NCBI GenBank assembly: GCA_023129075.1
Contig: JAGMCT010000002.1
Span: forward strand, 67,077 to 131,076
DNA: 64,000 nt
Origin: Candidatus Micrarchaeota archaeon
GTDB lineage: Archaea; Micrarchaeota; Micrarchaeia; Anstonellales; Bilamarchaeaceae
Direction: 5' to 3'
The notes below the pieces were generated by a model that worked only from the letters and a program-made list of their open reading frames with translations, ran no database searches and was not told the DNA's origin. Made by a program: the position numbers and the translations under genes. Of the stretch, positions 7,915 to 64,000 are shown piece by piece (the stretch's first letter is position 1; every line of letters begins with the position of its first letter).

Positions 7915-7939
7915 GTTTTCTCCTTCTTTGAAAATGGAT

Positions 7940-27022: not shown

Positions 27023-27306
27023 AAAAGATATCTATTGATGGAAAAACATACCTTGGTTTTGATTATAAGCTTGGAAATCTCCCGATGATTTTGATAAAGG
27101 CAAAGAAAGGTTATGTTGCCTGCAGTTATCTTGCTCCTGAAACTGCAGAAAAGGTAGGAGATGTTGCTGCTTTTGTAACAGGTGTAAAAAATATTGAAGG
27201 TTTGTATAATGCAAAGATACGAAAGATAACCTCATGGGCTGAAGAGATTGGTATAAGAGAGGGAATGAGTGTAAGGAAAGCCCTTGAGATAATGGACTCT
27301 GATTAG
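27019..27306 (+). CDS. DUF1805 (YunC-like) domain protein
   Basis: Size and pattern (IDGKTYLGFDYKLGNLPMILIKAKKGYVACSYL...) are typical of the archaeal DUF1805 family. Assignment from memory. Confidence 0.45.
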   Translation: MKKISIDGKTYLGFDYKLGNLPMILIKAKKGYVACSYLAPETAEKVGDVAAFVTGVKNIEGLYNAKIRKITSWAEEIGIREGMSVRKALEIMDSD

Positions 27307-36212: not shown

Positions 36213-36725
36213 ATGTTAATCGTTTTAAGACTGGGACACAGGCTTCCAAGAGATGAAAGAATAACCACACATGTCTGTCTTGTTGCAAGGGCTTTTGGTG
36301 CTGATGAGATTATTTATTCTGGACAGAAAGACAAAGGTCTTGAGAAATCAGTAAAAAAAATTGTTTCCGATTGGGGGGGAAATTTTAAGATTGGATACAC
36401 AGAAGACCCCGTTGGATTAATAAAAGAATTCAAGGAAAAAGATTTTTACATACTCCATCTTACGATGTATGGTTTTGGAATGGAAGAGATGAAAAAAGAG
36501 AAAGGCAGGAACACCCTCATAATCATAGGCGGAGGAAAGGTTCCTTCAGAGGTTTACGGACTTGCTGATTTTAATATTTCAATAACAAACCAGCCGCATT
36601 CCGAAGTTGCTGCTCTTGCAATTACGCTTGACCGTTTATTTAAAGGAAAAGAATTGAAATTAGAATTCAAGGGAAAGAAAAGAATAGTTCCCTCTGCGAG
36701 AGGGAAAAAGCTCACTGAATTTTGA
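36213..36725 (+). CDS. trm56: tRNA (cytidine56-2'-O)-methyltransferase aTrm56 (SPOUT)
   Basis: N-terminal LRLGHRLPRDERITTHVCLVARAFGADEIIY is the aTrm56 signature. About 170 aa. Confidence 0.8.
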   Translation: MLIVLRLGHRLPRDERITTHVCLVARAFGADEIIYSGQKDKGLEKSVKKIVSDWGGNFKIGYTEDPVGLIKEFKEKDFYILHLTMYGFGMEEMKKEKGRNTLIIIGGGKVPSEVYGLADFNISITNQPHSEVAALAITLDRLFKGKELKLEFKGKKRIVPSARGKKLTEF

Positions 36726-42250: not shown

Positions 42251-42378
42251 GCCAAGGTAGCTCAGTCTGGTTAGAGCGCCAGACTCATAAGGGATTATGA
42301 GTTCTGAGGCAAATGCCTATGATTGAATAGGCGCTCTGAGTAATCTGGAGGTCGGGGGTTCGAAGCCCCCTCTTGGCA
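42251..42378 (+). tRNA. Intron-containing tRNA with anticodon CAU (elongator tRNA-Met, or tRNA-Ile2 if the UAU tRNA call is wrong). The intron is ~55 nt in the anticodon loop
   Basis: GCCAAGGTAGCTCAGTCTGGTTAGAGCGCCAGACTCATA[...intron...]ATCTGGAGGTCGGGGGTTCGAAGCCCCCTCTTGGCA. Anticodon stem CCAGA/UCUGG. T-arm GGGGG-TTCGAAG-CCCCC. No archaeal-initiator features (no A1:U72, no triple GC in the anticodon stem). Confidence 0.75.
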
Positions 42379-43373: not shown

Positions 43374-44336
43374 ATGAAATCCAAGATCATTAATCCATTC
43401 TTAGTCGTCCTAACCTTCTCATTCTTTTTAATCAGCGGATGCATAGATGATAGAACCGAAACCGGAGCTCCTGGCTGTGATGGCGGTGGATGGGTACCCA
43501 CAGGCTGTCTTGGCAAGTCCCTAATAAAGAACATAACTGTTGAGCCTGCTGTTGCGTGCCTGAAGGTGGATGCAAACAACTGCAACGGCGGCATACTGGG
43601 TATTGAAAATAAGTGCGATGTAGATTTTAAGATTGGCGGCCAAACAATTTATGCCCATTCCTACCAGACCGTTGAGTTTGTAAGAAATGCTGAAGGAGAG
43701 ATATTTGTTATTGAACCCCACGGAAATTTTGATTCCTACAATCCAGAAGATGAAGATTTCCTAAGTTTTAAAGGAACTCTTGGAGAAGAGGAGATTACAA
43801 TCTCCTATTTGAAGAAAAATGTTTGCGGAACTGCAAAAACACCAGACATTGGCGGTGTTTCCTTGGAGATGTTTAAGACCAATTTTGACCCCAGCGAGCC
43901 CGTCGAAGCCTTCGTTGAAGCCGACAAAATGTTTTTTACTGGTTTTCCTGCTTTTGAGGTTTACCAACTGATTGATGAAGAATGGCATTATGTTGATATC
44001 TACGACTTCTTCTGCGCTCTGCCCTGCTCAGCTAACATAAGCGAGATTTGCGGAGGACCGATAGCATGCGCCCCGCTCCCACTCCATTGCATGGATTTTG
44101 ATTTTCTTTCCGATAACTTTGAATGGGACCAGACAATCCTGAAAATCCGCACTATTGAATGCCCTGATTCAAACGAAACAGCGATTTGCTCTTTTGAAGA
44201 AAAGGCCGAACCAGGCACCTACAAATTTGTTTTCCAATATTCCACAAACTGTATTAATACCGAATTTTTCTATGCGGAAGAAAATAATGTTCAAACTATT
44301 GAAAAGACCTTTGAGATTACCCCCAGTGCAGAATAG
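43374..44336 (+). CDS. Secreted Cys-rich lipoprotein-like protein (lipobox-like LISGC)
   Basis: Signal peptide with FFLISGC. About 24 Cys in 320 aa. No known domain. Confidence 0.5.
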   Translation: MKSKIINPFLVVLTFSFFLISGCIDDRTETGAPGCDGGGWVPTGCLGKSLIKNITVEPAVACLKVDANNCNGGILGIENKCDVDFKIGGQTIYAHSYQTVEFVRNAEGEIFVIEPHGNFDSYNPEDEDFLSFKGTLGEEEITISYLKKNVCGTAKTPDIGGVSLEMFKTNFDPSEPVEAFVEADKMFFTGFPAFEVYQLIDEEWHYVDIYDFFCALPCSANISEICGGPIACAPLPLHCMDFDFLSDNFEWDQTILKIRTIECPDSNETAICSFEEKAEPGTYKFVFQYSTNCINTEFFYAEENNVQTIEKTFEITPSAE

Positions 44337-44359
44337 TGAAAGAGCGAATGAACAACTCT

Positions 44360-45673
44360 TTAATTCCGATAATCAAATCCAAATAACCCAACCAGCAAAA
44401 GAAATGCAAGAGGAATACTGCACACATCATTAAAATTGTTCAAATCAACACTACCTTCTCCTATCTTTTCAATAGCAATCTCACTTTTTGATTTTCCTTT
44501 TTTTTCTATAATTATACTTCCATCTATTTCATTGTAACCAGTTTTAATCATAAAAGGAATCGTATGTATAAAATTATCCTCAAGCGCACTCTCATTTATT
44601 TCATAATAAACTGTTTTTAGTTCTCCAGGATTCATGAGAATAAAACTGTAATCATTCCCGTGCACATTTTCATCTATTACAAGTTTCATACATACCGGCA
44701 GATATCTATTCTTTGTATTTTTCATATAAATTTCAAGTTTCTGTTCTGTTGATTCATACACAAAGTCTATATCTATTGGCCCGTCTCTTTCATAGCTGTT
44801 TAATTCTGTTATTTTAACATCACTTTCCATTTCGAACCTGCCTCCCCTTGCACTCATCTGGTCCCCCATCTTTTTCTGGTCTTCTGCATTTGCCATTGCA
44901 ATATGCTCCCCGCTTAGGATACCCATCTCAAAAAATGTTGGGTCAACCGAAATCCATTTTCCATCAATCTTTATTTCTGCCCATGAATGAGACTGCCATC
45001 CTTCCTCCCCTTTTACATATCCTGATACTACATTACCTTCAAATCCTATGCTCTTTGCAAGCGCCAGGAACAGGTGTGAATATTCAACACACACACCCTT
45101 CTTATCCTGAAAGATTTTTTCCGCAGATTCAAATGTTCCCCAATACCCAAGGTCATACTCAAGATTATTGTGCACCCACTCAATAAGTTTTCCTGCAGTA
45201 TCCACCTGCCCTTCTGCTTCCCTTGTTATCTCAATTGCTTTCTGCTGCATTTCCTCAGTATATAAAGTCAGACCGCTTCCATTTACCGGTTTTCCACCCA
45301 ATTCAGGATTCTGCTCAAATCCATCTTCATATTCAATCTCAACCAGACCCCATACCCAAACCTGTTTTTCATCTTCCACCTCTGGAATCTCAAAGATTAC
45401 TCTTATTTCTGTATTATTCCTTTCAAACCTGCATTCATCAGAACATTTCATTTCAATTACTTTTTGGTACGAGGTATTAAGCAAAAAAATAGCATCTATT
45501 TCTATATCACTGATTTTTTCATCAGTCTTTATATTTATTGTTTTATTTATTTCTGCTTTCATATATCCTGTGTTTGCCACTATTATTGTTATAACCAGAA
45601 AAAGCATGAGGACTCTTTTCATGACTTTCTTTTTTTCTTTTCTCCTTTTAATTCTTTCTTTTTCTTTCTCCAC
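44360..45673 (-). CDS. Secreted/membrane-anchored transglutaminase-like cysteine-protease-fold enzyme. An alternative start at M 45622 would give a 4-nt overlap with the giant-gene stop
   Basis: Catalytic-core pattern GVCVEYSHLFLALAKSIG...SHSWAEIKIDGKWISVDPT (Cys-His-Asp). N-terminal signal anchor. Confidence 0.65.
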   Translation of the reverse strand: MEKEKERIKRRKEKKKVMKRVLMLFLVITIIVANTGYMKAEINKTINIKTDEKISDIEIDAIFLLNTSYQKVIEMKCSDECRFERNNTEIRVIFEIPEVEDEKQVWVWGLVEIEYEDGFEQNPELGGKPVNGSGLTLYTEEMQQKAIEITREAEGQVDTAGKLIEWVHNNLEYDLGYWGTFESAEKIFQDKKGVCVEYSHLFLALAKSIGFEGNVVSGYVKGEEGWQSHSWAEIKIDGKWISVDPTFFEMGILSGEHIAMANAEDQKKMGDQMSARGGRFEMESDVKITELNSYERDGPIDIDFVYESTEQKLEIYMKNTKNRYLPVCMKLVIDENVHGNDYSFILMNPGELKTVYYEINESALEDNFIHTIPFMIKTGYNEIDGSIIIEKKGKSKSEIAIEKIGEGSVDLNNFNDVCSIPLAFLLLVGLFGFDYRN

Positions 45674-48600
45674 AACAACAGCACCATAAAAAATATTATT
45701 TCAACATCAAGCATTGAGCAGGGATTGAATATATTGCCTGCCAGCCAGTTTCCATACAAGCTCCATCCAAATAGGAACGGAAGCGAGAATAATATCGGAA
45801 TAAATAGAATACCAATTCCAAGCATGCGCCCTTTCTTTTTCTTGTATTTCCTGCCCAGCAGATGTAAATTGAGAATAAATAGAATAACCATAGCAGTCCA
45901 CAGAATCCATGCACTGCTTTTTGGTATGTTATACAGCCCAAGACACAAAGGCCCTGAGCACATTCTCTCAAACTCACCTATAGATAACCCCTCATCCATT
46001 ATTGCATATCCGTCTTTATGTGCCTGCACAAGGTATTCCCCAGGTTCGCTGAAAGTAAGATATATCTCTCCCTTTTCATTTGTCTGGTATTCAACCTTCC
46101 CAAGACACATAGGTCCGGTACAAATCTTTGCGGTTTCCAGTTTTCCTGCTTCATCTGTTACTATGTATCCTCCATACTCGTCAAGGGTTATATAAGCCCC
46201 TTCTTTCTCAAATGTGTACCCCACCCTGTTTATCACCACAACAGCATTTGGAATTGGATTTCCTTTACTGTCTACAATAACAATCCAGGTCCTTTCATTA
46301 AGATAAATTTCATCCTCTGTTTGCACAAAACCTTTTCTTATTATCTCAAAAATCTTTTTCAGATCAAGATAGTTCTCCTTTTCTACGATTATTTCTCCTT
46401 TATATGAAATTATTACCCTTGCAATTCCCCCCTCACCAGCATAAGTATCAGTATCTTCATTATAAACATGTGCAAAAGGAACAGGCTCCCCCCTATTATT
46501 TATAATCTCCATTATTACTGTTTTTCCTTCAATAAGCTCCCCTTCAATTATCTTTAAATCCATCTCCTTTGGAACGCATGAATTATTTATGCAGAATTCT
46601 GTTTCCTTACATTCATAACCAGGTATTCCTTCACAGCACTCGTATTCTCTGCAGTCGTGGTTAAGTATGATTCCGCAAGCACAATCTATCTCAATACACA
46701 TACCTTCATTACAGTATTCATTCCATTCACAATCTCCATTCTCCTCGCATTCTATACACACTTCATCACAGAGATTGCTTTTGCACATTGCATTCCTTTC
46801 GCAGTCCTCTTCCAGTTCTCTTTTCTCTTCGCATATTATACCATTACAAAATTCGTCCTCTGCACAATCACTGTCATTGTAGCACTGAGGTATTACCTCA
46901 AAATAAAATTCATAATAATCATCGGCCCTTCCATTATCTGCAAGAACCTTAATTAGATATTCCCCCAACTCAGTTGGATAAACACCAAGCGCAATCTCTC
47001 CACTCTCCTTCTTTTCTATTTCCTGTATGAGCCCATCGCTTCCTGTTATTGACGGCGGGGTTACAAGCTCAACAAATATATCTTTTTCATCATAATTCCC
47101 AGTATTTTCTATAACCACAGCAACCAAGGTATTCTTGTATATTATTCCTTCCTCCGGTTCCGCAGAAATTATCTCTATCTTATGCTTCTTTTTATGGTCT
47201 TCTTCCCCCCCTGCTTCCTCAAGCGTTACATACCATGTTTGGTTAACCTCTTCATAAAGCGTTTCCAGCACCACCACAATTTCATATTCCTGAAGCGCAA
47301 GTCCATCCACATTCCATGCATATGTGCTCGTATCATTGGTTCCTGATGTTTCATTGTACTCAGCACCATCTACATACCACCTAATTACTACTTCGCTTGA
47401 ATTTTCATAGGTGATTATGAAATCCTGCACATCTGAATTCTCTATTGTTATATTTATTGGCGTGTCTCTCTCATAATCTCTTGTCCCCATATTCTCATCA
47501 GGATAAACAGTCAATATTCTTACACTCAGCGGAATATCACAGCTGTCCTTATATCCATCATCATCCATATCTGCAAATAAGCAGGTCCACTTCTCTCCGT
47601 TCGTTCCGGTTCCCTGGGCCGTAAGATTTGCACACAGGAAGAACACTTTTGATGCTGAGCTTACCTCATCCCCTTCAGCATCCGTCACGTTAATATAAAG
47701 CTCATACATTTCATCCTGCGCAGGTGCATTTATGGTTCCAGAGCATTCTACTCTGTCTGTCCCCACAACCACTGCAGGCAGATTCCCTGCAAGCTGGTCT
47801 ACCCCCCCGCTTTTCTTATAATACACCTGGCAGTTCGCTATCACTGTTGAGTCATCCGTCCTAAACTGTGCACTCACATCAATTGTATCGCTTATATTAT
47901 ACCAGACATCACTCAGGCTGAATGAACCGCTTACATATGCAGGCTTCAAATCCACAACAAACGAAGTTGTATTCATAAGCCCATAATTCCCTGCAGGGTC
48001 TCTTGCCCTTACACTCACATAATAGGTTCCGTCATCCACCATACTCCCTATATTGAATTTACAATTAGAGTCATAGGTTTCTCCAATAGAATATCCCCCC
48101 GGCCCTGTTGCATTATAATAACACCCATAAATCTCCCCGTCATGGAAGTTCGTATTTGCAGTATCACTGTCATTTGCAAGAACCCCCATCCATACTGCTC
48201 CATTATACACAATTTCGTCCTTAACACCCGGTTCTGTAACTATCCTCGTTATATTCGGCGCATCATCATCCAATATTAAATAATACGGGAAATTCTCTGA
48301 TGTTGCTCCCCCAGGATTGATGCTGTGCGAATACTCAAATTTCTTATAACTCCCAACATCAGCATAGCTGTAAGCAGAGGTTGTTGGAATCCTTATCGTC
48401 ACATCAAACCCATTATAGGTTGTTCCCAGGTGGTCATCATCCCATAATTTAATTACAGCCTGCCCTGCATTATCCTCATAAGAAAATGTTTCAAATATTC
48501 CTGCATCCGGCCCTTCTTTTGTCATCCCGGCCAGGTTCAATCCCTGCCCGTGCGAAAGCCCAAACCCATTTTTATTTCCAATAAACATCTTCACCTGGTC

Positions 48601-51600
48601 AAAACTCTCTGTGCTTGTAAGCCTTATCAAAAAGTCATTTCCTGTCCGCACCCTTCTCGGATAAGTCATGGTTACCTGGTTCCCTGGGCCTCCATATGTC
48701 ACAGTAATATTCTGCTCATCATATAATGTCCCATGCAGTGTTGAATCCACCCTGCATACAACATCATTTACACAATCACCATCAACACAATCCACAACTC
48801 CATCCCCATCATTATCAACATCATCATTGCATGTTGCTTCTGCAGGATTTTCGCATGCTCCTATTCCATTACAGTTTGCGTCTGCACAATCCGCATTCCC
48901 ATCATTATCATTATCCGCCCCATCAGAACAGAAATATGCATTGTTCTCATTTCCTCCAGCCACACAAATATGTGCATCGTAATCCACCAGCCATCCTACA
49001 CAATTTGTATCTCCACAATCAGTTCCCCCGCCATCAAACCTATCATAATCATTATCAAAACTATCCGCACATGAATCCCAGCTCACATTCTCTTCATCCG
49101 GGCACGGTCCGCAGTAGTCAAACTGCTGCCAGCAGTCCAAGTCATCACAGTCCGCTTTCACAGGAGGATAGGTTCCTTTATAAACATCTGTCGGCAGTGG
49201 GTCATCGTCCACCCCATTCTCACAATACGTCCAGTTCCTAAGCAGATTGTTAAAGAAAGGAGTCGCCCCAGTCGGGTCATATTCCATGTCAAGACACATC
49301 TCAAACGGATTGTTCGGATTCTGAACCCCTGTACAATTCATATCCCCGCAGTCAACCCCTCCAGATGCATTCACAATCCACGGACCACCTCCCCAAAAGT
49401 TTGCAGGATTTGTCCATTTATATGCATCCATATCATTATCCACATCATCAAAACACCATGAATCCTGAACATTTTCAACTGCAGGAACCGCCCCATCAAA
49501 CTGGCAGTCATAATCATCATAATCTCCATCATTTACGTATACAATCCCATAATACGCCAGATAAGCAGAAGGATTGTTTCCCCATCCAGGATTCGGCATC
49601 CCGCCTGCATTCCCATCATAATCATTATCAAATCCATCATTACAGGTAAGCTCTCTGCTCAATTCACAGGTATTTCCGCCTCCCATTACCGTAGTGTTGC
49701 AATCCTCATCCGGATACCTGTCGCTTCCATACCCGTAATAACCTCCCCATTCACAATCCATTCCTGCCCCATAACTATTGTTTATTGCATACCCAAATAT
49801 TCCTGCTTCCAGCCATTTATCCCAGTCATTATCTACACCATCATCACACTGCACCCCAACTTCAGTAAATATAGTAAAGTTCTGCTGGCAGAAAAACCTG
49901 CAGTCATACTCTGCATCATTATATCCACCCCCTCCCTGCAATTGACAATCCAATAAATTATACATATCATTATCAAAATTGTCATCACACGTAAGTTCTC
50001 TTCCATACTCACACCTATGATAAGGAGGAGTAGGCTCTGTCACCAAGTTGCAGTCCAAATCCCTGCAGTCCACCAAACTCAATCCTGGATTCACATGCCC
50101 CCAATTCGAATCCTCCATAGCCCAGTCATTATTATACTCATCAAAACAACTCTCATTCCCCAGCAGTTCACTTGCATAACCGCACAGCCCATAGGTAAAT
50201 GCACCAATATAATCATTCCATGCAGAAGGCCCCCAGCTTGCATTACAATCCAAATCATAACAATCATAAGAAGACTCGTAAAAACAATTCTGCTCATTCC
50301 CTGCACAGTTCAGATAATCAAAGTCTGCATTCTCAGTATCGTTGCATGAGCCCCAGTTCACCCCCTCAACCCAGATATCATCCTCATGTTCATTTGTTGA
50401 GTTCCATTTTCCCCCAGGGCTTCCCCCATAGCTCTCATTATCAAAATAAATAGGCACACTAACTGTTTCAGAATATACTGTAATCCCCTGCACATATGTC
50501 ACAGTAATATTTATCTCATACCCCTGGCTCATATCTATTGAACCCGGGTCCGCAAAACTCAAGTTGAATGTTGTATCTATCTTTGCAATCGTCTGGTCAT
50601 TGTCAAATGATTTTAGTATAACCTCATTCTGCCTTGTGTTCGCAGGCCCAAGAGAATCTGTTAATATAGGATTACTATTCTTATCAATAAAATAAAGCAG
50701 TTTCCCTTCATTTGCTGTCGCTCCCGGCGCATACTTATTAACCTGCTCAATATCCGGGAACCCCTCAACATTTACTGTTGTAAGATAACTATTTCCTGCA
50801 TTTATCTGCCATGCCCTAATTCTCATCTTGAATGTTCCGTCCGGCATTGAATGCATAGTATACCATATATTAGTGCTGAATGTTACTGCAGTGCTCTGCT
50901 CCTTTCCAATATCCCCAGCAGGTATATTTACAGCCAGCGTTCCATGCGAACCCGAAGGAGAATAATACAAACTTGAATTAGCAAATGCCTGTTTCACCAA
51001 ACAAGAATATGTAATCCCCCTGCAGTCCGAATCAAAGCAGTCCACAAAGGTATCATCCTCAGCAAAATCCGCAAACCCAGGCGCCCCAATTGCAGAATCT
51101 ACCCCATCATTGCACCATTCCTCCACAGAAATCCCATTATATTTTGTAACAGAATAGGTAACATCCCCAGGCCCATCCGCCTTTACAGTATTCCTAAAAT
51201 ACTGCGCCTCAATACTCTTTCCGTTGAATGCATTTGCTATATCCGCAGAGCTCCAGTTCAAAGGATGCACATGTATTCTCCAGTTTGTCTTATAGCTCTC
51301 TTTTACTGTTCCCCCTCCATCTATTACCTCGCATTTATCTATCTCCCACGGCACATAAATAGAGGTATTCCCTCCCATGCTTGTATTTATGGAATCCGTT
51401 ATCTGCAGGGAATAATTAAGCGAAACATTCTCACTATTTATCCCCCCCGCCCCAATGGTTCTGTTCAGGAAAAATCTTGTGCAGCTGCTGTTGTAAGGAT
51501 GGTCCCCGCAGTCCGACTGATTTATCCAGCATCCAACTTTATCCCCGGCATTCGCAGTCATATTTTCCAATATAATAGTAAAATTATACTTCAACCCTTC

Positions 51601-52335: not shown

Positions 52336-52542
52336 AAATTCATTTAAACTAAGTCTCTTAAAAAAGGTTTCTAAAACACATTTTCATATTAAATAACAAA
52401 TAATTTAACAGCAAATAATTTATTTTGGAATTCATTTTAATAGAATATTAGTTCTATTTTATGTGTTTATACTGCTCTTTCTTATCTTTCCCAACAATAA
52501 ATAACCCTAACCTTTAAAACGCCCCTTGATATTACTTTAGTG

Positions 52543-55500: not shown

Positions 55501-58500
55501 TCAACAACTGATGATTTAATCCGAATAAACGCCTCTTCTATTACTTTAGACTGCAACGGTTCAACATTAGATGGAGATGATGCAGGGGATGATTATGGAA
55601 TAGATACACAAGGAAATGATTACCTGGAGATAAAAAATTGCATAATTACTGATTTTGAAAGTGCAATATCTGCAACAGGCACAACCTACAGCAATTTCAC
55701 CAATAACACAGCCATTTCAAATACTGATGGTTTTATTGCTTCTTCTTTTAATTTTAATATTCTCTTAAACAATACCGCTACTTCAAACACAAAACATGGT
55801 TTCCACATTTCTTCTTCTTCCAATAATATTTTCACCAACAACACAGCCCAGCATAATGGCTATGGTTTCGGCATCTATACCACATCCGAGTATAATACCT
55901 TCACTAACAACATAGCTTATAGCAATAATGCTGGCGGTTTTTATCTTCGCACTTCAACCTACAGCATTTTCACTAACAACACAGCCAGTTCAAATAGTAA
56001 TGGTTTTTATTTTTACTCATCTTCAAGCAATAATATATCCAACTCAATAATTATAAACAATTTAAATCGTGGAATATACCTGTACAGAAATTCAGATAAT
56101 AATACATTTGAAAATATAACACTACATGGCAATGCCCAATCTTCTTCTTATGAGATTTACTTTGACCGCAATCTTGCGGATTATCCTGAACACAACACCT
56201 TTACAGATATAAAACTCTACAATTCCACAAGATACATTGGATTTGACGACCAAACCCATACAAACCAAAATAATTTCACCAACCTTTCCATATGCTACAA
56301 TTCCACAATAGGCTGCATAAATTGGGACTTCCTCAACCTCACTTATGCAAACCTTGCAAATGCAACAACAATCATCCTTGACCCAGAATTCATTTCCCTA
56401 AACACCTCAAATGCCGGAGCAGTCCAGTTCAATTCCTCTGCAAACATAACCGTAGAGGTCGTTTCCTGCATAAAACCTGCCGAATTCATAATAAGAAGAT
56501 TAACAGAATTCCCGCAAAGCAAAAACATCATACTGACCAGCGGGCAGGATTATGATCCAACATCTATATCCTGCCCTTCTTCCACATCCATTAAGTTCAA
56601 TATTTCTTCCTTCTCAGGCTTTGCTCCATTGAAAGCAGGAATCACAGATTGCTATACCATAGCTCATCCCGGAGACTACTGGATAGTAGATGACATAGAC
56701 GCAAGCTCTGTAAATGAAGTTTCTGCACGCGCCTGCATAAATATATCTTCAAGTAATGTCAACCTCAACCTCAACGGCTTCTCAATAGCAAACGGTTCAA
56801 ACATAAGCGGCATCTTTGCAAACGGTTCAAGCTCATATCAGTATACTAATATAACCATCCGTGATGGAACAGTAACGAACTTCACCCACAACAGCACCAT
56901 CGGCCCGGCATATATCGGAGGAATCATATTTACTTATATAGAGAATTCAAGTCTCTCAAACCTATCAGTAAGCTATGCTTCAAAACAAACCCCTGCAAAG
57001 GTTTCCACATATGGAATATTCTTTGATGGGAGCTCTTATAACTCCATTCTCAACCTTACGGTGCACAACAACGAACAAAATGGAATTAGAATTGAATCCT
57101 ATTCAAACTACAATAATTTCTCAGATATAATATCCTTAAGTAACATAGGGACTGGAATCCGAATCTCCTCAAGCCTAAACAACAGAATAGACCAAAGCAC
57201 CATATACAGCAATTCAGGAAGAGGAATCCATCTAGACTCCTCAAATTACACCATGGTCTTAGATACCCTTACTTATGATAACAGCTATGGCATCTCCTTA
57301 ACCTCAACCTCAAACAACACCCTCACCAACATCACCAGCCACACTAATTCCAACGGCGGTTTTTACTCTTCTGCAAGCTCCGGAAACAACATAACAAATA
57401 TACTATCCTACAACAATACCCAAGAGGGTTTCTTCATCACAACCTCCCATTTCAATAAATTGGAAAACATAACAACCTACACTAATTCCAGAAGAGGTTT
57501 AGTGCTTTTTTTGAGTAATTACAACACTCTTGAAAATATCACTACATACAATAACCCCTGGTACGGCATTTTTATCTCTTCTGCCTCCAACAACAACCTC
57601 ATCAACATTACCTCCTATAACAATTCCCAACACAGCCTTTACATATACGCAAATTCAGACAATAATATATTCACAGATTTAACATTCTATGAGGATGGGA
57701 AATCTCCTTCCTATTATGAGGTTTACTTTGGCCGCAATGGAGTAATTTACCCGGAATACAATACCTTTACAGATATAAAACTCTACAATTCCACAAGATA
57801 CATTGGATTTGACGACCAAACCCATACAAACCAAAATAATTTCACCAACCTTTCCATATGCTACAATTCCACAATAGGCTGCATAAATTGGGACTTCCTC
57901 AACCTCACTTATGCAAACCTTGCAAATGCAACAACAATAATCCTTGACCCAGAATTCATTTCCCTAAACACCTCAAATGCCGGAGCAGTCCAGTTCAATT
58001 CCTCTGCAAACATAACTATTTATGCTGAGGACTGCGCACACCCAATTTACAAAGCCTCAAATTTCCCAGATTCAAGAGATTTAATTCTCTCTTCCGGCTC
58101 TAAAGTTAACCCCATATACAATACCTGTTCAAATAATATTGCAGTATTTTCCACAGTAAATGATTTCTCAGGATATACAAAAGGATATGCTGGCTGTGTA
58201 AACCTTTCCAATCCCTCAACCTATCAAAACAAAGTAGTAAACATGAGCGGAATCTATTACATAAATAATGACGTAATTCTATGCACAGATAATTATTCAA
58301 CAACTGATGATTTAATCCGAATAAACGCCTCTTTCATTACATTGGACTGCAATGATTCTATTCTTGATGGAGATAATGCAGGGGGTGATGAGGGTATAAA
58401 CACACAACAGAATAATTACTTAGAAATAAAAAATTGCATAATTACTGATTTTGAAAGAGGCATATATCTATTTAATTCTACATACAATAGAATAGACAAT

Positions 58501-61500
58501 AACAATATTAGTAATTGTATTAATGCCGGAATACTAATTTCAAAGTCTTCTAATAATACCAATATAACAAATAATTTTATAACTAATACTGGCGGGGATG
58601 CAATCAAAATCGATAATTCCATATATAACTGGGTCTATAACAATACTTTAAGTAATAGTAATGGAATGGGAGTAAATTGTCTGATTTCTCCATATACAAC
58701 TATTGAACAAAACACAATCAGCATCAGCCAAATAAACGGGATATGCATAGAAAATACTTCTTATATTAATGTGATTAATAATAATATTTCAGATTCAGGA
58801 TATTTGGATATTGTAGTTGCTTATGCTCATTATAATAACATAACTTCTAATGAAATTCATAGTTTAAACGACCCCGGAGTGTTTGGAGGAATAGTCATTA
58901 CTGCACAAAGTGAGAATAATACAATAGAAAACAATGTACTTAGTGGGGATTCTACTGAAAATGGAATTGCTTTAAGTAATACTAATTATCCTACTGAGCC
59001 GCAATATCTGAAAGATTTGGGTTCTGCAAATGTTCATAACAATATCATCAATAATACAATTACTAATTACAAGAAAGGGATTTATGTTTTCAATTCCACG
59101 TTCAATACCTTCATCAGCAATAAGGTAAGCTTGAACAACGACACTGGATTTTATCTCAATATCAGTCATAATAATTCAATCTATGATAATTATTTCGCTG
59201 ACAATAATAAAAGTGTCTTTGACAACGGAAACAACTCCTGGAATACTACATACAATTGTACAGGCCCGGCGAATATAATCGGAGGCTCCTGTAGAGGCGG
59301 TAATTTCTATTCAGATTACAGCGGAATGGACAACGGAATGTCCCTTGAGCCAGGCCACAACTATTCACTGGATGGAATAGGCGACCAACCACTAAATTAT
59401 ACAATTTTAGGGGGAAGCGCAGTTGATAACTTACCCCTATCAAATAATGCTTCTCTGTATTATCTGCATAAGTGCCGTGCGACGAGTTTTTGTGATGAGG
59501 GAACCTTGTCCCTCTCGCCTCTAACATCAGAACTGGAAGTGGCGCTTTGCAGTAATTTTGTGTCATTTAGAATGAGGGAGCCAGCACTTGAAAATACCAC
59601 AATTTATATTTCAAATATATATTATCACACTTGGTTCAGAGGATACAATAACAGCAATATATCCGTGGGTTGGCAGAAATATTATAATTGGAGCAATCAG
59701 ACAGATGCCTACTTTTACCCTACTGATAAACTTGTCTCTGAGTATCTTGGCTTTCATTTGTTATCGCACATTCAATCAGCCAATATTTCATATGCCAATC
59801 CTGGCGAGATAAATGGCAATTTTGCTATCAAATGGGCGAGGTATGAATATTCCCCAATAATATGGTCAAGGTATGACAGGCCTTCTTATATTATGCTTAA
59901 TTTGCCAAGCATTGCTGTTTTGCAAAATGGGGACTCAGATGGTGATGGTTTATCGAACTATGAGGAATTAATGAATGGAACTAATCCAGTAAGCAATGAC
60001 ACTGATAGTGATGGGTTAAGCGATTATAATGAGACTCACTGGGTGACTGACCCGAATAATCCAGATGTGGATAATGATGGCTTGGTTGACGGCTCTGACC
60101 CAATGCCATGTGATACACGATATAATACTACATATAATATGTCGGCAGAAAACGGAATTGTTGAAGTAACATGCAATGCTTCAAATTCTGGTTACATTTT
60201 CCAAGATTTGAATGTAGATAATGGCGACGACTTCACGATTAGAAACTGCAGGATATTATTTAATAGCACTGATAATTCACTTGGAGATCCAAGAGGTATA
60301 ACAGTGCTGAACGGCGGACGATTGCAGATTTATAACTCAACTATAGAAACTTACAATAGAACATATTCTTGGTTGTTTGAAGTAAATGGAACGACAACGC
60401 TGGAAGATTCCACATTATTTGAAATGGTAACGATTGGCCTCCATGATAGCTCAACTTCTATTGTTAATAATTGCACGATGGCAACATGGTCTGGAGATAA
60501 TATAATTAATGGAAAGGATGGTGGTAATGACATTATAACAAATAACACATTTATGTATTGCTCTAATGAAGGCACAGGATACCCACATAGGATAATTACA
60601 CTTAGTGACACCTATAACATTACTATTTCAAACAATAACTTTTTAGTGTCCTGCGGGAGTATTGGCGGAATTCAAATATCTGACAATTCACATGATAATA
60701 AAATTATAAACAACGTTGTGCAGAACACTGTTTGTTTTCTTGATGGACCTCATGCTAATAGTAATCTAAGTGATAACACAATAGCATATAACAACGTGTC
60801 AACCAGTCTTCTCGGTGCAGTAATATTATGGGGCGATAATACTAAAAGCAGAATAATTGGCAATAGACTTTCCGGAAGGATAGAAGCGAACTTTGCTGAT
60901 GATGCGGTTATAGAAAATAACACAATATATCATGATGGCACCTTCAATTATCGCGGGGTAACACTGGATCAGAGTGACAATGCCACCATTGTTGGCAATC
61001 ACATCTATGACAGAGATATCGCTATTATGGTTACTGAAAGCACCAACATGAACATAAAAAATAATAGAATTCATAATAATACGCAGCATGGTATTTATGT
61101 CTGGGATATAGATAACAGCTCGGTTACGAACAATACAATTCATAATAGCTCGATGGCAGGAATCTTTCTCAATGCAAGTTCCAATAACATCATCACTAAT
61201 AATAATATATCCCTAAATGAAGAAGATGGCATCTCGCTTATTAATAGTTCTTACAATAACATCACAGAAAATACACTCTTTGATAATTCAGATAATGGAA
61301 TAATACTTGAGGAAGAATCAGAGCATAACCTAATACAAAACAATGCAGTGAATGAATCAACCGTGGCCAATGTCATTATTGTAGGCAGCAACTATAATAA
61401 TATAATTAGTAATAATCTCTCTAACGCTAAAGTTGCTGAGATGATTGTAATATTCTCTGGGTGGATTACTATATCTGATAATGAGCTAGTTAGTTCTTCT

Positions 61501-64000
61501 TCTATGTTTGGCGGGATTATTCTCTCAGGTATGAGTTCCTATTGTACTATTAATAATAATAATATTTCAGGCAGTTTAAATGGAAATGGAATTAGCCTAA
61601 CGGAAATAAGGTCACCACCAGCATCAGATTATATTCCTTCATCATGTATGTACAATAATATCACCAACAACACAATTACTAATTATCAGAAAGGGATTGA
61701 TGTCTTCAATTCCACGTTCAACATTTTCACCAGCAATAATGTAAGCTTGAACAACGACACCGGATTTTATCTCAACATCAGCCATAATAATTCAATCTAT
61801 AATAATTATTTCGCTGATAATAATAAAAGCGTCTTTGACAACGGCAACAACTCCTGGAATACTACATACAATTGTACGATACTCGGCTACACCAATATAA
61901 TCGGCGGGAACTGCACGGGAGGGAATTACTGGAGTGATTATAATGGAACAGACAATACTGGTGACGGCATTGGCGATACCGAACTCCCTTGGCAGGGCTC
62001 TTCGTCCATTCAGAATGGCGGTGACTGGCTGCCTCTGGTGCCGGTTGCTGGACCATCTCCATTTCTTGTAAGATTCACACCCCCCACCCCGTCAAATGGC
62101 ACAACTGTCATGTCACCCCCCATAACAATAAATGTAAGCATATCAGGAGCCGCTGCTTTGAATGAAGTTAACTTTAGCTGGGATAATACAACTCATGGAA
62201 TGTACAATAGCAGTTTAATCCTCATGTATAATTTTGATAACATCCCAATCATAGGAGATAATAATACATACGTAAAAGACATAAGCAACAGCAGTTATGA
62301 TGGAGTTCTAATAGGAGATGCACATTATGTAACCGGAAGATACGGAGAGGCAATAAATTTTGATGGGGATGGAGATTATCTTGCCATCAAAAACTTACAC
62401 TTTGACACAACAGGAGAGATTGGAAATCTTACGGTATGCGTTTGGTTCAAGACTAAAGAATCAGGCGGAGGGACCTTTGATAACTGGGCGTTTGTAGATT
62501 TTGACCGAAGCGAATATTTCAATTTCTTTATCCGGCCAAACGGGCTTTTAGGCTTTGGAACGACCAGTTGCGGCGGTTGCACACATGACTTCTACGGAAG
62601 CACTCCTGCCAATGATGATGAATGGCATTTCGGCTGTGCTGTATTTGATTCTTTAGATACATATGACAAAAAATTATATTTAGATGGAAAGCTGGATAAT
62701 AAAGTTGATGCTTATTCAACAGGGATAACCTTAGGAACAGGAACTACCAGGTACGGATTTATTGGAGACGGTTCTGAAGCTGCAGTTTTCAATGGAACTA
62801 GAAACGAGTTGTACTATAACGGAACAATCGATGAAGTAAGAATTTGGAATATGAGTTTAAGCGCAGACCAAATACAACAACAGTATTTTTCCAATTTATA
62901 CAAATATGATGCAGATAAATGGCAGTTGTACATTGACCAAGAAGACTCAGACGGCACATATGATTATTATGCCTGCGCTTCTGACCTATCCAACGATTTT
63001 AATTGCACTGAAATAAGAACCATAACAATAGACATGTTCCCTCCTGTAATAACAATCATAAGCCCTGAAGCAAAAACATATATTGCAGATATGATAGACT
63101 TTAATGTAAGTTTAAATAAACCTGGAGACTGGTGCGGATACAGCTTGGACGGCCCTGAGAAATACAATGAAATGGTTGCATTCTGGAAGTTTGAAAAAAC
63201 TGCCAAAGATTTTGCAGGAAGCAATCATGGAACAGCCTATGGTGTTACAGATACCGCTGGATACAGCGGTTTTGCTTATAATTTTGACGGCGATGATTAC
63301 ATCAGCATACCCAATTCATATGATATCAACCTGGGAGTTCATGACAAGAGAACAATAAGCGCATGGTTCAAAGTAAATGATAAGGATTTAGATGCCAAGC
63401 AGGTAATATATGAAGAGGGAGCAACAGTAAGAGGATTGAATATATATGTATACAACGGCTCCCTTTATGTTGGAGGCTGGAATGAGCCAGCTGCTGAGAG
63501 CAATTGGGATGGAACCTGGATGAATACAAGCAGTATATCCAGCAACACCTGGCATCATGTAGTGGTGCGCCTTGATGGAACACCAGCAGTCCAAATTGAT
63601 GCACTAAAAGGCTATCTGGACGGCGCCAATTTTGCAAACGGCAGCGGTTCACAATTATGGTCCCACAGCGGTGACATCAGTATAGGAAGAAATGGAGATA
63701 CAAAATTCCATGATGGAGATGATGGCAGTTTAGGTGAATATTTCAATGGAACAATAGATGAGGTAATAATTTACAATGATGCGCTTACAGATACTCAAAT
63801 AGAAAACATATATAATAGTACATTGGTTTCAATGGACAAATACAGCAATACATATTTCAACTATACAAAAAACATGTCTGGTAAAGCACCTCATATTGTT
63901 GTATTCTACTGCAATGACACGCACGGAAATATGGGAAAATCCAATAAAAGATATTTTGCAGTAGATACTGTTCCGCCGGCAATTTCATTAGAAGCTCCCC
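52543..64000 (+). CDS. Second giant secreted surface protein (>3819 aa visible; no stop before the window end, hence missing from the ORF track). It has a signal peptide, many right-handed beta-helix (PbH1-like) NNT-rich rungs, TSP3/dockerin-like DxDxDG Ca-binding repeats (~59.9-60.1 kb) and two LamG/ConA-like jelly-roll domains (~62.3-63.8 kb)
   Basis: Frame 1 (pos mod 3 = 1) is open from ATG 52543 to 64000, checked by manual translation at nine separate points (52.5, 54.4, 56.5, 59.5-60.1, 61.0, 62.4, 64.0 kb). N-terminal MLGSKSGLGLALLLFILALLQPIS. Motifs IDEVRIWNMSLSADQI and IDEVIIYNDALTDTQI (LamG). DSDGDGLSNYEEL...DVDNDGLVDGSDP. Confidence 0.75.
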   Translation, partial: MLGSKSGLGLALLLFILALLQPISDTTFTKTINISYFESMESDFSNLQVFSISDEGAEPLVYTILEYSPGEWALLEISIPYDSERLLFTHFLLDNYEPVTISGKEVKYYFEKINGAGYIRLKDSFIENITIHNISASSNIEIFKDIIVSNDELENLRAFSFNPKNIESAEISIIAKGYFLFKCKDWNYTTQSCQGEWEYQFPITPGKPYTIHLNSLDPGYAESGPFIAFDDRGLTVTSNVYSSDNVYANKKASISYWVNGTWNMDILGDLNSANFKCELKVDLAALGTLYHEWFNSSSSSWKTICTKSTTIQITDTTHSCDVSSDLNTSESSHTLRCRIAFLLLKDISIDYISLDSDFQCVNLSNPSTYQNRVVNMSGIYYINDNVILCTDNYSTTDDLIRINASSITLDCGGSTLDGDDAGSDYGIDTQQNNYLEIKNCIITDFRSGIYTDANYSNFTNNTVYSNIEGFSVVSSSNNSFTNNTAHNNLKCGFSLSSSLNNTLTNNTANSNQDGFHLQSSSIYNTLINNTAQENLGCDLVIAISTAGDCNNLIENNTGSGGRPILYANESVTWSNLEASEVILCNADYSVITNVTVKGSDALDNNYFLLYHSDNLSISDSSSVNNLYGFYASYCSHNNFTNNTANSNNNYGFYIRYGSNNAFTNNTANYNNYGFYIRSSPSNIFTNNTADSNDNYGIYLYSTSDNKLTNNTASMNGRCGFTLYSSSNYNTLASNTVSSNERSGFYFYSSSGNNISNSIIINNSQRGMHLYGNSDNNTFENITLHGNAQSSSYYEIYFDRSGVIYPEYNTFTDIKLYNSTRYIGFDDQTHTNQNNFTNLSICYNSTIGCINWDFLNLTYANLANATTIILDPEFISLNTSNTGAAQFNSSANITIYAEDCAHPIYKASNFPDSRDSILSSGSKVNPIYNTCSNNIAVFSTVNDFSGYTKGYVGCVNLSNPSTYQNKVVNMSGIYYINDNVTLCTDNYSTTDDLIRINASSITLDCNGSTLDGDDAGDDYGIDTQGNDYLEIKNCIITDFESAISATGTTYSNFTNNTAISNTDGFIASSFNFNILLNNTATSNTKHGFHISSSSNNIFTNNTAQHNGYGFGIYTTSEYNTFTNNIAYSNNAGGFYLRTSTYSIFTNNTASSNSNGFYFYSSSSNNISNSIIINNLNRGIYLYRNSDNNTFENITLHGNAQSSSYEIYFDRNLADYPEHNTFTDIKLYNSTRYIGFDDQTHTNQNNFTNLSICYNSTIGCINWDFLNLTYANLANATTIILDPEFISLNTSNAGAVQFNSSANITVEVVSCIKPAEFIIRRLTEFPQSKNIILTSGQDYDPTSISCPSSTSIKFNISSFSGFAPLKAGITDCYTIAHPGDYWIVDDIDASSVNEVSARACINISSSNVNLNLNGFSIANGSNISGIFANGSSSYQYTNITIRDGTVTNFTHNSTIGPAYIGGIIFTYIENSSLSNLSVSYASKQTPAKVSTYGIFFDGSSYNSILNLTVHNNEQNGIRIESYSNYNNFSDIISLSNIGTGIRISSSLNNRIDQSTIYSNSGRGIHLDSSNYTMVLDTLTYDNSYGISLTSTSNNTLTNITSHTNSNGGFYSSASSGNNITNILSYNNTQEGFFITTSHFNKLENITTYTNSRRGLVLFLSNYNTLENITTYNNPWYGIFISSASNNNLINITSYNNSQHSLYIYANSDNNIFTDLTFYEDGKSPSYYEVYFGRNGVIYPEYNTFTDIKLYNSTRYIGFDDQTHTNQNNFTNLSICYNSTIGCINWDFLNLTYANLANATTIILDPEFISLNTSNAGAVQFNSSANITIYAEDCAHPIYKASNFPDSRDLILSSGSKVNPIYNTCSNNIAVFSTVNDFSGYTKGYAGCVNLSNPSTYQNKVVNMSGIYYINNDVILCTDNYSTTDDLIRINASFITLDCNDSILDGDNAGGDEGINTQQNNYLEIKNCIITDFERGIYLFNSTYNRIDNNNISNCINAGILISKSSNNTNITNNFITNTGGDAIKIDNSIYNWVYNNTLSNSNGMGVNCLISPYTTIEQNTISISQINGICIENTSYINVINNNISDSGYLDIVVAYAHYNNITSNEIHSLNDPGVFGGIVITAQSENNTIENNVLSGDSTENGIALSNTNYPTEPQYLKDLGSANVHNNIINNTITNYKKGIYVFNSTFNTFISNKVSLNNDTGFYLNISHNNSIYDNYFADNNKSVFDNGNNSWNTTYNCTGPANIIGGSCRGGNFYSDYSGMDNGMSLEPGHNYSLDGIGDQPLNYTILGGSAVDNLPLSNNASLYYLHKCRATSFCDEGTLSLSPLTSELEVALCSNFVSFRMREPALENTTIYISNIYYHTWFRGYNNSNISVGWQKYYNWSNQTDAYFYPTDKLVSEYLGFHLLSHIQSANISYANPGEINGNFAIKWARYEYSPIIWSRYDRPSYIMLNLPSIAVLQNGDSDGDGLSNYEELMNGTNPVSNDTDSDGLSDYNETHWVTDPNNPDVDNDGLVDGSDPMPCDTRYNTTYNMSAENGIVEVTCNASNSGYIFQDLNVDNGDDFTIRNCRILFNSTDNSLGDPRGITVLNGGRLQIYNSTIETYNRTYSWLFEVNGTTTLEDSTLFEMVTIGLHDSSTSIVNNCTMATWSGDNIINGKDGGNDIITNNTFMYCSNEGTGYPHRIITLSDTYNITISNNNFLVSCGSIGGIQISDNSHDNKIINNVVQNTVCFLDGPHANSNLSDNTIAYNNVSTSLLGAVILWGDNTKSRIIGNRLSGRIEANFADDAVIENNTIYHDGTFNYRGVTLDQSDNATIVGNHIYDRDIAIMVTESTNMNIKNNRIHNNTQHGIYVWDIDNSSVTNNTIHNSSMAGIFLNASSNNIITNNNISLNEEDGISLINSSYNNITENTLFDNSDNGIILEEESEHNLIQNNAVNESTVANVIIVGSNYNNIISNNLSNAKVAEMIVIFSGWITISDNELVSSSSMFGGIILSGMSSYCTINNNNISGSLNGNGISLTEIRSPPASDYIPSSCMYNNITNNTITNYQKGIDVFNSTFNIFTSNNVSLNNDTGFYLNISHNNSIYNNYFADNNKSVFDNGNNSWNTTYNCTILGYTNIIGGNCTGGNYWSDYNGTDNTGDGIGDTELPWQGSSSIQNGGDWLPLVPVAGPSPFLVRFTPPTPSNGTTVMSPPITINVSISGAAALNEVNFSWDNTTHGMYNSSLILMYNFDNIPIIGDNNTYVKDISNSSYDGVLIGDAHYVTGRYGEAINFDGDGDYLAIKNLHFDTTGEIGNLTVCVWFKTKESGGGTFDNWAFVDFDRSEYFNFFIRPNGLLGFGTTSCGGCTHDFYGSTPANDDEWHFGCAVFDSLDTYDKKLYLDGKLDNKVDAYSTGITLGTGTTRYGFIGDGSEAAVFNGTRNELYYNGTIDEVRIWNMSLSADQIQQQYFSNLYKYDADKWQLYIDQEDSDGTYDYYACASDLSNDFNCTEIRTITIDMFPPVITIISPEAKTYIADMIDFNVSLNKPGDWCGYSLDGPEKYNEMVAFWKFEKTAKDFAGSNHGTAYGVTDTAGYSGFAYNFDGDDYISIPNSYDINLGVHDKRTISAWFKVNDKDLDAKQVIYEEGATVRGLNIYVYNGSLYVGGWNEPAAESNWDGTWMNTSSISSNTWHHVVVRLDGTPAVQIDALKGYLDGANFANGSGSQLWSHSGDISIGRNGDTKFHDGDDGSLGEYFNGTIDEVIIYNDALTDTQIENIYNSTLVSMDKYSNTYFNYTKNMSGKAPHIVVFYCNDTHGNMGKSNKRYFAVDTVPPAISLEAP
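53628..53880. repeat. Partial (~250 bp) additional copy of the second half of the repeat module
   Basis: gtaaacctctccaatccctcaacctatcaaaacagagtagtaaacatgagcggaatctactacataaa... matches 55408.. and 58198.. Confidence 0.75.
54871..55680. repeat. About 0.8-kb intragenic repeat module, copy 1 (near-identical to 57661..58470)
   Basis: Long identical runs seen by eye (e.g. ctctacaattccacaagatacattggatttgacgaccaaacccatacaaaccaaaa..., ...gtaaacctttccaatccctcaacctaccaaaacaaagtagtaaacatgag...). Confidence 0.8.
56101..56450. repeat. Partial (~350 bp) third copy of the first half of the repeat module
   Basis: Same sequence as 54871-55220 and 57661-58010. Confidence 0.75.
57661..58470. repeat. About 0.8-kb intragenic repeat module, copy 2
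   Basis: See copy 1. About 95% identity by eye, including the encoded LYNSTRYIGFDDQTHTNQNNFTNLSICYNSTIGCINWDF... and CVNLSNPSTYQNKVVNMSGIYYIN... Confidence 0.8.

Follow-up and report, generated by a model that had tools for sequence, protein, structure and literature searches.

What are the two giant genes for that dominate one end of a 64,000-nt stretch of Candidatus Micrarchaeota DNA, and do the smaller genes beside them belong to the same system? This stretch (contig JAGMCT010000002.1, positions 67,077 to 131,076 of the forward strand), hereafter called the window, spends about 20 kb on two giant proteins of exported type and two smaller ones. A life in attachment to other cells is commonly assumed for DPANN archaea, with their giant surface proteins as the chief candidates for establishing contact. 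The reading that we favor, with moderate confidence, is that the locus is a lineage-specific envelope-gene cluster of a cold-seep member of the Micrarchaeota, in which two anchored or exported, glycosylated giants would act in attachment. An earlier note on this DNA, made from its letters without database searches, gave accurate coordinates for all four genes, which are arranged as follows.

43374..44336, plus strand: predicted secreted Cys-rich protein of 320 amino acids (aa), with 15 Cys and a lipobox-like LISGC
44360..45622, minus strand: transglutaminase-like enzyme, 420 aa; the longest open reading frame (ORF) reaches GTG 45673 (437 aa), and the NCBI start is 45607
45619..52335, minus strand: the first giant, called here the minus giant, 2238 aa, or 2233 aa if translation begins at ATG 52320, as is likely
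52336-52542: spacer of 207 bp between the giant genes
52543..63999, plus strand: the second giant, called here the plus giant, at least 3819 aa, the gene being cut by the end of the window; signal peptide, 188 N-x-S/T sequons

Identical proteins at NCBI (MCK4319124-35, locus tags KAW38_010xx) are named Candidatus Micrarchaeota archaeon. The sample (SAMN18200505 / SRR13892594) is the South China Sea Site-F cold-seep metagenome (PMC9357000).

Probable Divergent Promoters and Predicted Export of the Giants

A divergent promoter region of about 200 bp had been proposed between the giants, and the 207-bp spacer indeed carries a separate TATA-like box for each of them.

52342..52348, minus strand: TTTAAAT, 28 nt before the minus-giant start ATG 52320
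52513..52519, plus strand: TTTAAAA, 30 nt before the plus-giant start ATG 52543

This arrangement supports two separate divergent promoters, as predicted from motif positions. For the minus giant, ATG 52320 is the likely start, giving 2233 aa; NCBI uses this start as well, and a TATA-like box precedes it at position -28. A box about 27-30 nt before the start codon is the archaeal TATA geometry for leaderless mRNAs. The same spacing recurs in the window: a TTTAAA(A/T) or ATTAAAA box is found at -27 to -30 of the transcript-leading starts 15067, 21506, 23812, 31143, 40102, 52320, and 52543. Such box spacing would imply that mRNAs of this organism are mostly leaderless, and it offers a way to pick start codons.

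All four proteins have Sec-type hydrophobic N-termini, as judged by inspection and a hydropathy scan. The plus giant starts with a typical signal peptide, MLGSKSGLGLALLLFILALLQP, and the signal peptide of the minus giant, recognized by inspection, is MRFVLVFVLLCSLLYGANV. Both giants are rich in N-glycosylation sequons, with 188 N-x-S/T sites in the plus giant versus 105 expected from its own composition, and 51 versus 20 expected in the minus giant; the baseline in cytoplasmic proteins of the window is at most one sequon per 100 aa. Taken together, the sequon enrichment, the hydrophobic N-termini, and the TATA-like boxes at -28 and -30 suggest that the giants are exported, independently promoted glycoproteins.

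Modules of the Plus-Strand Giant

The plus frame is free of stop codons from 52501 to 63999, which yields at least 3819 aa from ATG 52543. The absence of a stop inside the window, pointed out in the earlier note, holds to the last base. By our own arithmetic, a run of 3833 open codons would arise by chance with a probability of about 1e-117 at the stop frequency of about 0.07 per codon that follows from the base composition. The N-terminal 360 aa have no Pfam match in the fragment scan, and the remainder is composed of the following modules, all on the plus strand.

53623..59442, plus strand: four right-handed beta-helix modules, aa 361-950, 951-1340, 1341-1880, and 1881-2300 (Pfam on fragments)
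59932..60102, plus strand: three TSP3-type Ca-binding repeats (predicted), DSDGDG.., DTDSDG.., and DVDNDG.., aa 2464-2520
60163..62022, plus strand: fifth beta-helix module, aa 2541-3160 (NosD 3.5e-46, Beta_helix 6.8e-38)
62362..62877, plus strand: first LamG domain, aa 3274-3445 (Laminin_G_3 7.2e-18)
63286..63801, plus strand: second LamG domain, aa 3582-3753 (Laminin_G_3 3e-19)

With the whole protein as a query, the Pfam families NosD (PF05048) and Beta_helix (PF13229) are matched with E-values of 1e-126 and 3e-112, respectively. The scores are 417.7 bits for NosD (cut-off 23.6), 371.7 bits for Beta_helix (cut-off 25.9; 15 stretches), and 224 bits for TIGR03804. Laminin_G_3 (PF13385) reaches 107 bits on the whole protein, above its gathering cut-off. 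TSP3_bac (PF18884; cut-off 25) is matched with 25.1 bits by the full protein and with 30.6 bits by a fragment; the DxDxDG-type motifs of its repeats start at aa 2464, 2486, and 2508 and would be expected to bind Ca2+. The combination of beta-helix, TSP3, and LamG domains that had been ascribed to both giants is therefore present in the plus giant. In the minus giant, no Pfam family is found at cut-off, so that the surface- or adhesin-type domains detected by Pfam at this locus belong to the plus giant only.

Pectate lyases and many glycosidases are built on a right-handed beta-helix, and domains of the LamG/ConA-like type often act as carbohydrate-binding modules. With both Pfam families scoring strongly, the plus giant might be an extracellular enzyme array, in which beta-helix lyases or hydrolases combined with LamG carbohydrate-binding modules degrade glycans of a host or of the environment for food or entry. 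We consider this unlikely, given that only the generic NosD and Beta_helix models match, that no catalytic family does, and that no catalytic residues were identified in the plus giant. A NosD function proper was also considered and rejected, the model TIGR04247 for the NosD subfamily of copper-enzyme maturation reaching 138.6 bits versus a cut-off of 300; what is left is the generic beta-helix fold.

The beta-helix modules have DNA repeats of 260-825 nt in common, with 88-92% identity to each other (self-BLAST), and this raises the possibility that paralogous beta-helix genes were joined via these repeats, making the plus giant an assembly artefact or a pseudogene. The same DNA is represented in three further contigs from other assembly pipelines: a scaffold at ENA (98 kb), DAOVQD010000005.1 at NCBI (100.6 kb), and a shorter one from Logan (15 kb); at least the ENA and Logan contigs share the sample of the window. 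The other contigs end inside the plus gene, at aa 440, 892, and 3447, and the ends of the Logan and NCBI contigs, at aa 440 and 892, fall precisely at repeat ends. The ENA scaffold is colinear with the plus giant up to 62335 at 99.92% identity, and all 21 nucleotide differences between it and the window are inside the repeats of the plus giant (55041-55197, 56373, and 58056-58278), changing seven residues. These differences could be due to consensus mixing between repeat copies during assembly, or they could be real and reflect variation within the population or gene conversion affecting a surface protein. The assemblies, moreover, are probably from the same sample. On the other side, the frame is open for 11.5 kb through every junction, two assemblers agree on the order over 9.8 kb without gaps, and repeats that are just 88-92% identical can usually be resolved by short reads. 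All three further contigs align with the window in the same order (99.92-100% identity) and without frameshifts, and the minus giant is intact and identical in each of them. An artefact of this kind is thus very unlikely, and the module order is agreed by two pipelines, probably working on the same reads.

The 3' end of the plus gene was sought outside the window. When the last 800 aa served as the query for homologues, all matches were to generic LamG and beta-helix proteins, with the plus giant itself not among them, and neither a scan of genome contigs with the last 500 aa nor exact look-ups of partial products gave a match.

Cys/Asp Repeats and Putative Membrane Anchor of the Minus-Strand Giant

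Neither the whole minus giant nor any of its ten fragments matches a Pfam family at cut-off; only sub-threshold Ig-like, CARDB, and CarboxypepD_reg similarities appear, and no beta-helix, TSP3, or LamG match was found by Pfam. Its main features are the following.

47536..51660, minus strand: conserved core, aa ~226-1600, about 1400 aa, common to giants of metagenome-assembled genomes (MAGs) with DPANN labels
48772..50148, minus strand: array of about nine Cys/Asp repeats, aa 730-1188, C-x-[DN]-x-x-D-N-D...D-C-x-D-x-[DN]-C (regular expression)
45676..45915, minus strand: putative C-terminal membrane anchor, three hydrophobic segments resembling transmembrane (TM) helices at aa 2141-2220, followed by a Lys-rich tail (hydropathy scan)

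The earlier note had described this protein as Cys/Asp-rich, and it does contain 3.8% Cys and 9.1% Asp, with a Cys/Asp-rich middle section. An additional repeat copy at aa 408-438 brings the total to about ten, several with long inserted loops, and a second Cys-rich patch is located at aa 1811-1930. The teneurin C-rich domain reportedly binds Ca2+, and the Cys/Asp repeats of the minus giant probably do so as well. The last unit of the array aligns over 33 residues with the C-rich domain of Teneurin-4 (PDB 7plp; E 8.1e-6). The NCBIfam model for the acidic double-disulfide repeat, NF033662, gives 38.2 bits on two stretches of the minus giant, at a cut-off of 41. The repeat unit of about 20-30 residues, C-x-D-x-x-D-N-D-x-D-G-x-x-D-C-x-D-x-D-C, aligns nearly residue for residue with the teneurin C-rich domain (PDB 7plp and 7bam). 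It occurs once in the animal receptor, whereas there are about ten copies in the archaeal giant, several of them expanded by long loops. For the array, "teneurin C-rich-like" is a better label than "TSP3-like".

Elsewhere in the window, tblastn with the minus giant picks out a 30-aa stretch of 63% identity, encoded at 23532-23621 (minus strand) inside the ORF 23079-23747. The 222-aa protein to which this stretch belongs thus probably has a Cys/Asp repeat of its own.

C-terminal anchors had been suggested for both giants. For the minus giant the hydropathy scan bears this out, the protein ending about 18 residues past the last TM segment with a Lys-rich tail of about 20 aa; the C-terminus of the plus giant falls outside the window.

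A Conserved Core Family in DPANN-Labeled Genomes

The minus giant had looked like an orphan, with two relatives only in a word-indexed search, and this view was abandoned when an exhaustive HMMER search revealed the real family. A phmmer search with 1000 aa of the core (aa 216-1215) against 1.84 billion representatives produced 1549 matches. About 17 proteins of 1.7-7.3 thousand aa align over practically the full query (39-52% identity), about 30 further proteins match the Cys/Asp half only, and hundreds match only the last two repeats. By BLASTP, aa ~226-1600 are shared at 34-48% identity in nine loci. Family members named at the protein level come from Woesearchaeota and Nanoarchaeota MAGs, and a scan of GTDB species genomes yielded eight core loci, in MAGs labeled Aenigmatarchaeota, Micrarchaeota, Woesearchaeota, Nanoarchaeia, and Nanoarchaeota, plus two core-bearing MAGs (CAYSVS010000003.1 and CAYRYC010000001.1) with the label "uncultured Methanosarcinales archaeon"; either these two are mislabeled or mis-binned DPANN contigs, or the core family reaches beyond DPANN.

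In the family alignment, the Cys and D-N-D columns are strongly conserved, 56 columns are invariant (alignment A2), and the motifs WRIHVH and YSPSGSHGT stand out. The core appears to consist of beta-sandwich domains, about ten Cys/Asp repeats, and Ig-like domains, and as far as we have searched the family is unnamed in the literature. Other members carry accessory domains, among them a lipase-like alpha/beta hydrolase, a cadherin-like domain, and a PQQ beta-propeller (the last by NCBI name). Most full-length homologues whose C-termini were read finish with a TM segment and a basic tail.

The pairing of two giants seems to be partly conserved. A second giant ORF is present upstream of the minus-giant homologue, on the same strand, in three of the nine loci (L010, L015, and L017); the pairs there are in tandem, versus divergent here. 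The upstream giants of L010 and L015 resemble the LamG region of the plus giant, and that of L010 also contains Laminin_G_3. Both end without a TM anchor, and because of this an anchor on the plus giant cannot be assumed.

Two of the loci contain, directly upstream of the minus-giant homologue, a conserved protein of about 200 aa (L010 9313-9933; L011 161-748) that starts with a signal peptide and has a TM segment and a Lys-rich tail at its C-terminus. No counterpart of it was detected by BLASTP among five proteins of the window (both giants, the transglutaminase-like enzyme, the 320-aa protein, and a 465-aa protein).

The distribution of the core bears on another explanation, namely that the giants form a structure of the cell's own envelope, an S-layer-like coat or glycocalyx that protects and shapes the cell without host attachment. 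Conservation of the core over several DPANN lineage labels fits such a housekeeping role, and there is no other obvious S-layer gene in the window. Archaeal S-layer proteins, too, typically have beta-helix, Ig-like, and CARDB-type domains, are heavily N-glycosylated, and carry TM anchors at the C-terminus, and proteins of this sort have been treated as surface-layer components (PMC5498576). We nevertheless regard a purely structural role as rather unlikely, though worth keeping in view: the size range of 1.7-7.3 thousand aa and the varied lipase-like, cadherin-like, and beta-propeller domains of the family point to variable interaction proteins, and the LamG lectin domains of the plus giant point to ligand binding.

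Relation to Known Surface Proteins and a Model of Attachment

Giant, Sec-exported, C-terminally anchored proteins with LamG or Ig-like domains are a recognized hallmark of DPANN archaea and have been proposed to mediate host contact (PMC6642349, PMC10266531, PMC5498576). Among them are the SPEARE proteins of Nanohaloarchaeota, with up to 8553 aa, the Nha-C protein having been seen by proteomics (PMC6642349); the nanohaloarchaeal SVXNc_0300 has 9409 aa, and LamG operons take up about 6% of nanohaloarchaeal genomes (PMC10266531). The giants described here share with SPEARE proteins (SVXNc_0300, BNXNv_0298; PMC6642349, PMC10266531) the DPANN origin, a length of thousands of residues, and a predicted Sec signal and mostly extracellular chain, as well as LamG and Ig-like adhesion domains, a C-terminal TM anchor (putative, in the minus giant), a sizeable share of the genome, and a proposed role in host contact. 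However, in SPEARE proteins the TM segment is followed by a conserved cytoplasmic domain, which has been read as restriction-enzyme-like or as a VirB4/TraG-like ATPase, whereas the minus giant has only its Lys-rich tail of about 20 aa. Pfam detected neither a protease nor an ATPase domain in the giants, which were scanned whole and as fragments and, for the plus giant, up to the end of the window. Membership of the minus giant in the SPEARE group was rejected for want of the cytoplasmic domain, as judged by domain layout and not by direct sequence comparison.

The ARMAN/Micrarchaeota lineage of the cultured "Ca. Mancarchaeum acidiphilum" Mia14 is related to the source organism of the window. 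An expansion of LamG jelly-roll proteins is known in Mia14, and strain-specific secreted surface proteins, about 2.5% of its genome, were read as a host interface (PMC5498576). LamG-type surface proteins are a common feature of the two archaea; in terms of domain sets, Mia14 has PKD, Kelch, and YVTN beta-propellers, whereas beta-helices, TSP3, and teneurin-like C-rich repeats are found here.

Based on these comparisons, a model of the locus can be outlined. The two giant genes would be transcribed divergently, each from its own TATA-type promoter and probably into leaderless mRNA, and both products would be Sec-exported and heavily N-glycosylated. The minus giant would be held in the membrane by its three C-terminal hydrophobic segments and display the core of about 1400 aa, with disulfide-locked, acidic, probably Ca2+-binding Cys/Asp repeats. 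The plus giant would be a chain of five beta-helix modules, with TSP3 repeats of Ca-binding type and two or more lectin-like LamG domains. We suggest that the giants project outward as Ca2+-stiffened, glycosylated stalks, whose lectin-like and beta-helix modules could bind glycans or glycoproteins of another cell, presumably a host, or of a surface. In this model export, glycosylation, Ca2+ binding, adhesion, and the nature of the binding target are all predictions.

Several points weigh against this interpretation. The order and number of the plus-giant modules depend on short-read assembly through repeats of 88-92% identity, at the ends of which two other assemblies break. The C-terminus of the plus giant is beyond the window, and the comparable upstream giants in L010 and L015 lack a terminal TM segment. 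Finally, beta-helix modules can be enzymes instead of adhesins. Even so, a role as DPANN surface or attachment machinery appears to be a reasonable reading that fits the literature.

The gene content of the locus is of a sort already known for the DPANN group, and current views of DPANN biology are unchanged. The locus adds two well-delimited giant examples from the Micrarchaeota, and the core of about 1400 aa, which belongs to no Pfam family at cut-off and occurs under at least four DPANN lineage labels, is a reasonable target for family definition. Delineation of this core module is one by-product of the analysis; the others are a purD-linked family of exported transglutaminase-like proteins and a possible Cys-containing C-terminal sorting tail, both considered below.

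The Transglutaminase-Like Enzyme

The best start of the transglutaminase-like gene is ATG 45622, which overlaps the TGA of the minus giant as ATGA (4 nt); the N-terminus from this start is MKRVLMLFLVITIIVANTGY. Transglut_core (PF01841) is matched with 75.3 bits (E 5.7e-21; cut-off 23), and the triad C178, H212, and D227 is invariant in an alignment of 12 family members. The protein begins with a signal or anchor sequence and has an invariant Cys just before a C-terminal TM helix. In its AlphaFold2 model (pLDDT 80), a beta-sandwich is followed by the transglutaminase core, a second beta-sandwich, and the TM helix. The best PDB match of the model is 3isr, a transglutaminase-like putative cysteine protease of Cytophaga hutchinsonii (E 2.5e-17, target-normalized TM-score 0.69), followed by animal transglutaminases (TG2, factor XIII); the sequence match to 3isr has an E-value of 1.5e-7. 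Both proteins have a beta-sandwich and a papain-like transglutaminase core, whereas the archaeal protein adds the C-terminal beta-sandwich, the TM helix, and the invariant Cys before it, and its family is usually encoded after purD. It is plausible, judging from the model, that this is an active, exported, membrane-tethered Cys-His-Asp enzyme; sequence and fold cannot tell a cross-linking transglutaminase from a protease or amidase.

The earlier note had proposed that the enzyme cross-links or processes the minus giant. In favor of such a dedicated partner, which would cross-link or proteolytically mature the giant, the two genes are on the same strand with the 4-nt ATGA overlap that the note had observed, the products are probably co-expressed and made together, both proteins would be exported and membrane-anchored according to the hydropathy scan, and the catalytic triad is intact. 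Gene order in related genomes points elsewhere. Full-length relatives were examined in 41 loci, four looked up individually (L005, L006, L008, and L009; three are NCBI assemblies, at least two of them named Micrarchaeota) and 37 full-length loci from JGI metagenomes (among L020-L058). The gene directly follows purD in 31 of the 41, often with an overlap: in all four individual loci, with an overlap of 1-4 nt, and in 27 of the 37 metagenomic ones (for instance, L023 5478-7891). No giant gene stands beside it in any of the 41 loci, nor does an ORF of at least 1500 aa adjoin it in any of the 37 JGI loci. Conversely, none of the ten loci with minus-giant homologues has a transglutaminase-like gene, and there is no purD in the window. 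Since the relatives follow purD and never a giant, and purD is missing here, the adjacency looks like a local, recent-looking rearrangement that is not conserved in related genomes.

Dedication of the enzyme to the minus giant is therefore improbable and has no support from synteny. We suggest that the exported, membrane-tethered enzyme is co-translated with the giant here merely through the local rearrangement, and that general envelope maintenance, by cross-linking or proteolysis, is its more likely role. The analysis removes the idea of a dedicated partner and places the enzyme in a conserved purD-linked family, apparently exported and found in Micrarchaeota-labeled MAGs. A bolder variant, distinctly unlikely in our judgment, is that the enzyme was recruited to fix the giant covalently to the envelope or to a partner cell, giving an isopeptide-locked attachment organ; to the related notion that the Cys tail described below is a new sorting or lipid-anchor signal we assign the same low standing.

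The operon-type linkage of purD, encoding the GAR synthetase of cytoplasmic purine synthesis, with a membrane-anchored extracellular enzyme is odd. A literature search returned no paper linking transglutaminase-like proteins to DPANN surfaces.

Genomic Context

The neighbors of the locus are archaeal housekeeping genes, encoding PCNA, the large subunit of RFC, aTrm56, the archaeal D-aminoacyl-tRNA deacylase, and a cupin-type GPI. Rfam detects four tRNA genes in the window, two of them long, with 102 nt (7939-8040, minus strand) and 128 nt (42251-42378, plus strand); these two presumably contain introns, and both were missed by ARAGORN. The assignment to a DPANN-like archaeon, made originally from the DNA letters, is right: the NCBI names, the intron-type tRNAs, and PCNA, RFC, and aTrm56 all fit it.

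The term "island" that had been applied to the locus is adequate as a description; horizontal transfer is not supported by composition or flanks. The GC content is 0.35-0.43 inside the region versus 0.36-0.42 elsewhere in the window, with a skew that tracks amino-acid composition, and all four upstream genes scanned are housekeeping ones (cupin GPI, RFC large subunit, D-aminoacyl-tRNA deacylase, and PCNA). A horizontally acquired genomic island was rejected on these grounds, flanking direct repeats not having been searched for.

The Cys-Rich Protein and Other Predicted Envelope Proteins

The 320-aa protein, with the N-terminus MKSKIINPFLVVLTFSFFLISGC, is a candidate lipoprotein, with a lipobox-like I-S-G-C at residues 20-23 (found by inspection; pattern [LVI][ASTVI][GAS]C). 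It has no Pfam family and forms a singleton cluster annotated as "hypothetical protein [Candidatus Micrarchaeota archaeon]". Its description as a Cys-rich lipoprotein gene next to the transglutaminase-like gene is correct as to the position, the 15 Cys, and the lipobox-like motif; the two genes are convergent, however. Because the gene lies 22 bp past PCNA on the same strand and is preceded by GAGGAG, resembling a Shine-Dalgarno sequence, and by no TATA box, it probably belongs to the PCNA transcript and not to a surface operon.

Several proteins with signal peptides have a similar C-terminal tail, which consists of a Cys, often followed by x-x-Pro, about 15 hydrophobic residues, and a few basic or polar residues at the end, as in ..VCSIPLAFLLLVGLFGFDYRN, ..ACPVPIGALLMVLFAAFFKIQ, ..ACISFILFSLPFLLLIISRN, and ..GCVGAILIFSLAALLFFRRG. 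The sites are the following.

44360-44440: transglutaminase-like enzyme
36712-36790: 465-aa beta-helix protein
27303-27380: 154-aa protein
45619-45700: minus giant, perhaps
19669-21159 of locus L005: a further site

The Cys of the tail is invariant in all 12 members of the transglutaminase-like family, and none of the curated models of C-terminal sorting signals (CTERM) matches the tails at cut-off. By its recurrent pattern, the tail may represent an undescribed C-terminal sorting or lipid-anchor signal of Micrarchaeota.

Other genes of the window also encode likely envelope proteins. The 465-aa beta-helix protein (36712-38109, minus strand) combines a signal peptide with a TM segment at the C-terminus, a 397-aa protein (19154-20347, plus strand) likewise has a C-terminal TM segment, together with 16 sequons, and a 641-aa protein (17232-19157, plus strand) has a hydrophobic N-terminus and no Pfam match. 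Finally, a protein of 1162 aa (31143-34631, plus strand), with weak Pfam matches of coiled-coil type (ATG16, crescentin rod) and two adjacent hydrophobic segments at aa 196-233, is predicted to be a large membrane-associated coiled-coil protein.

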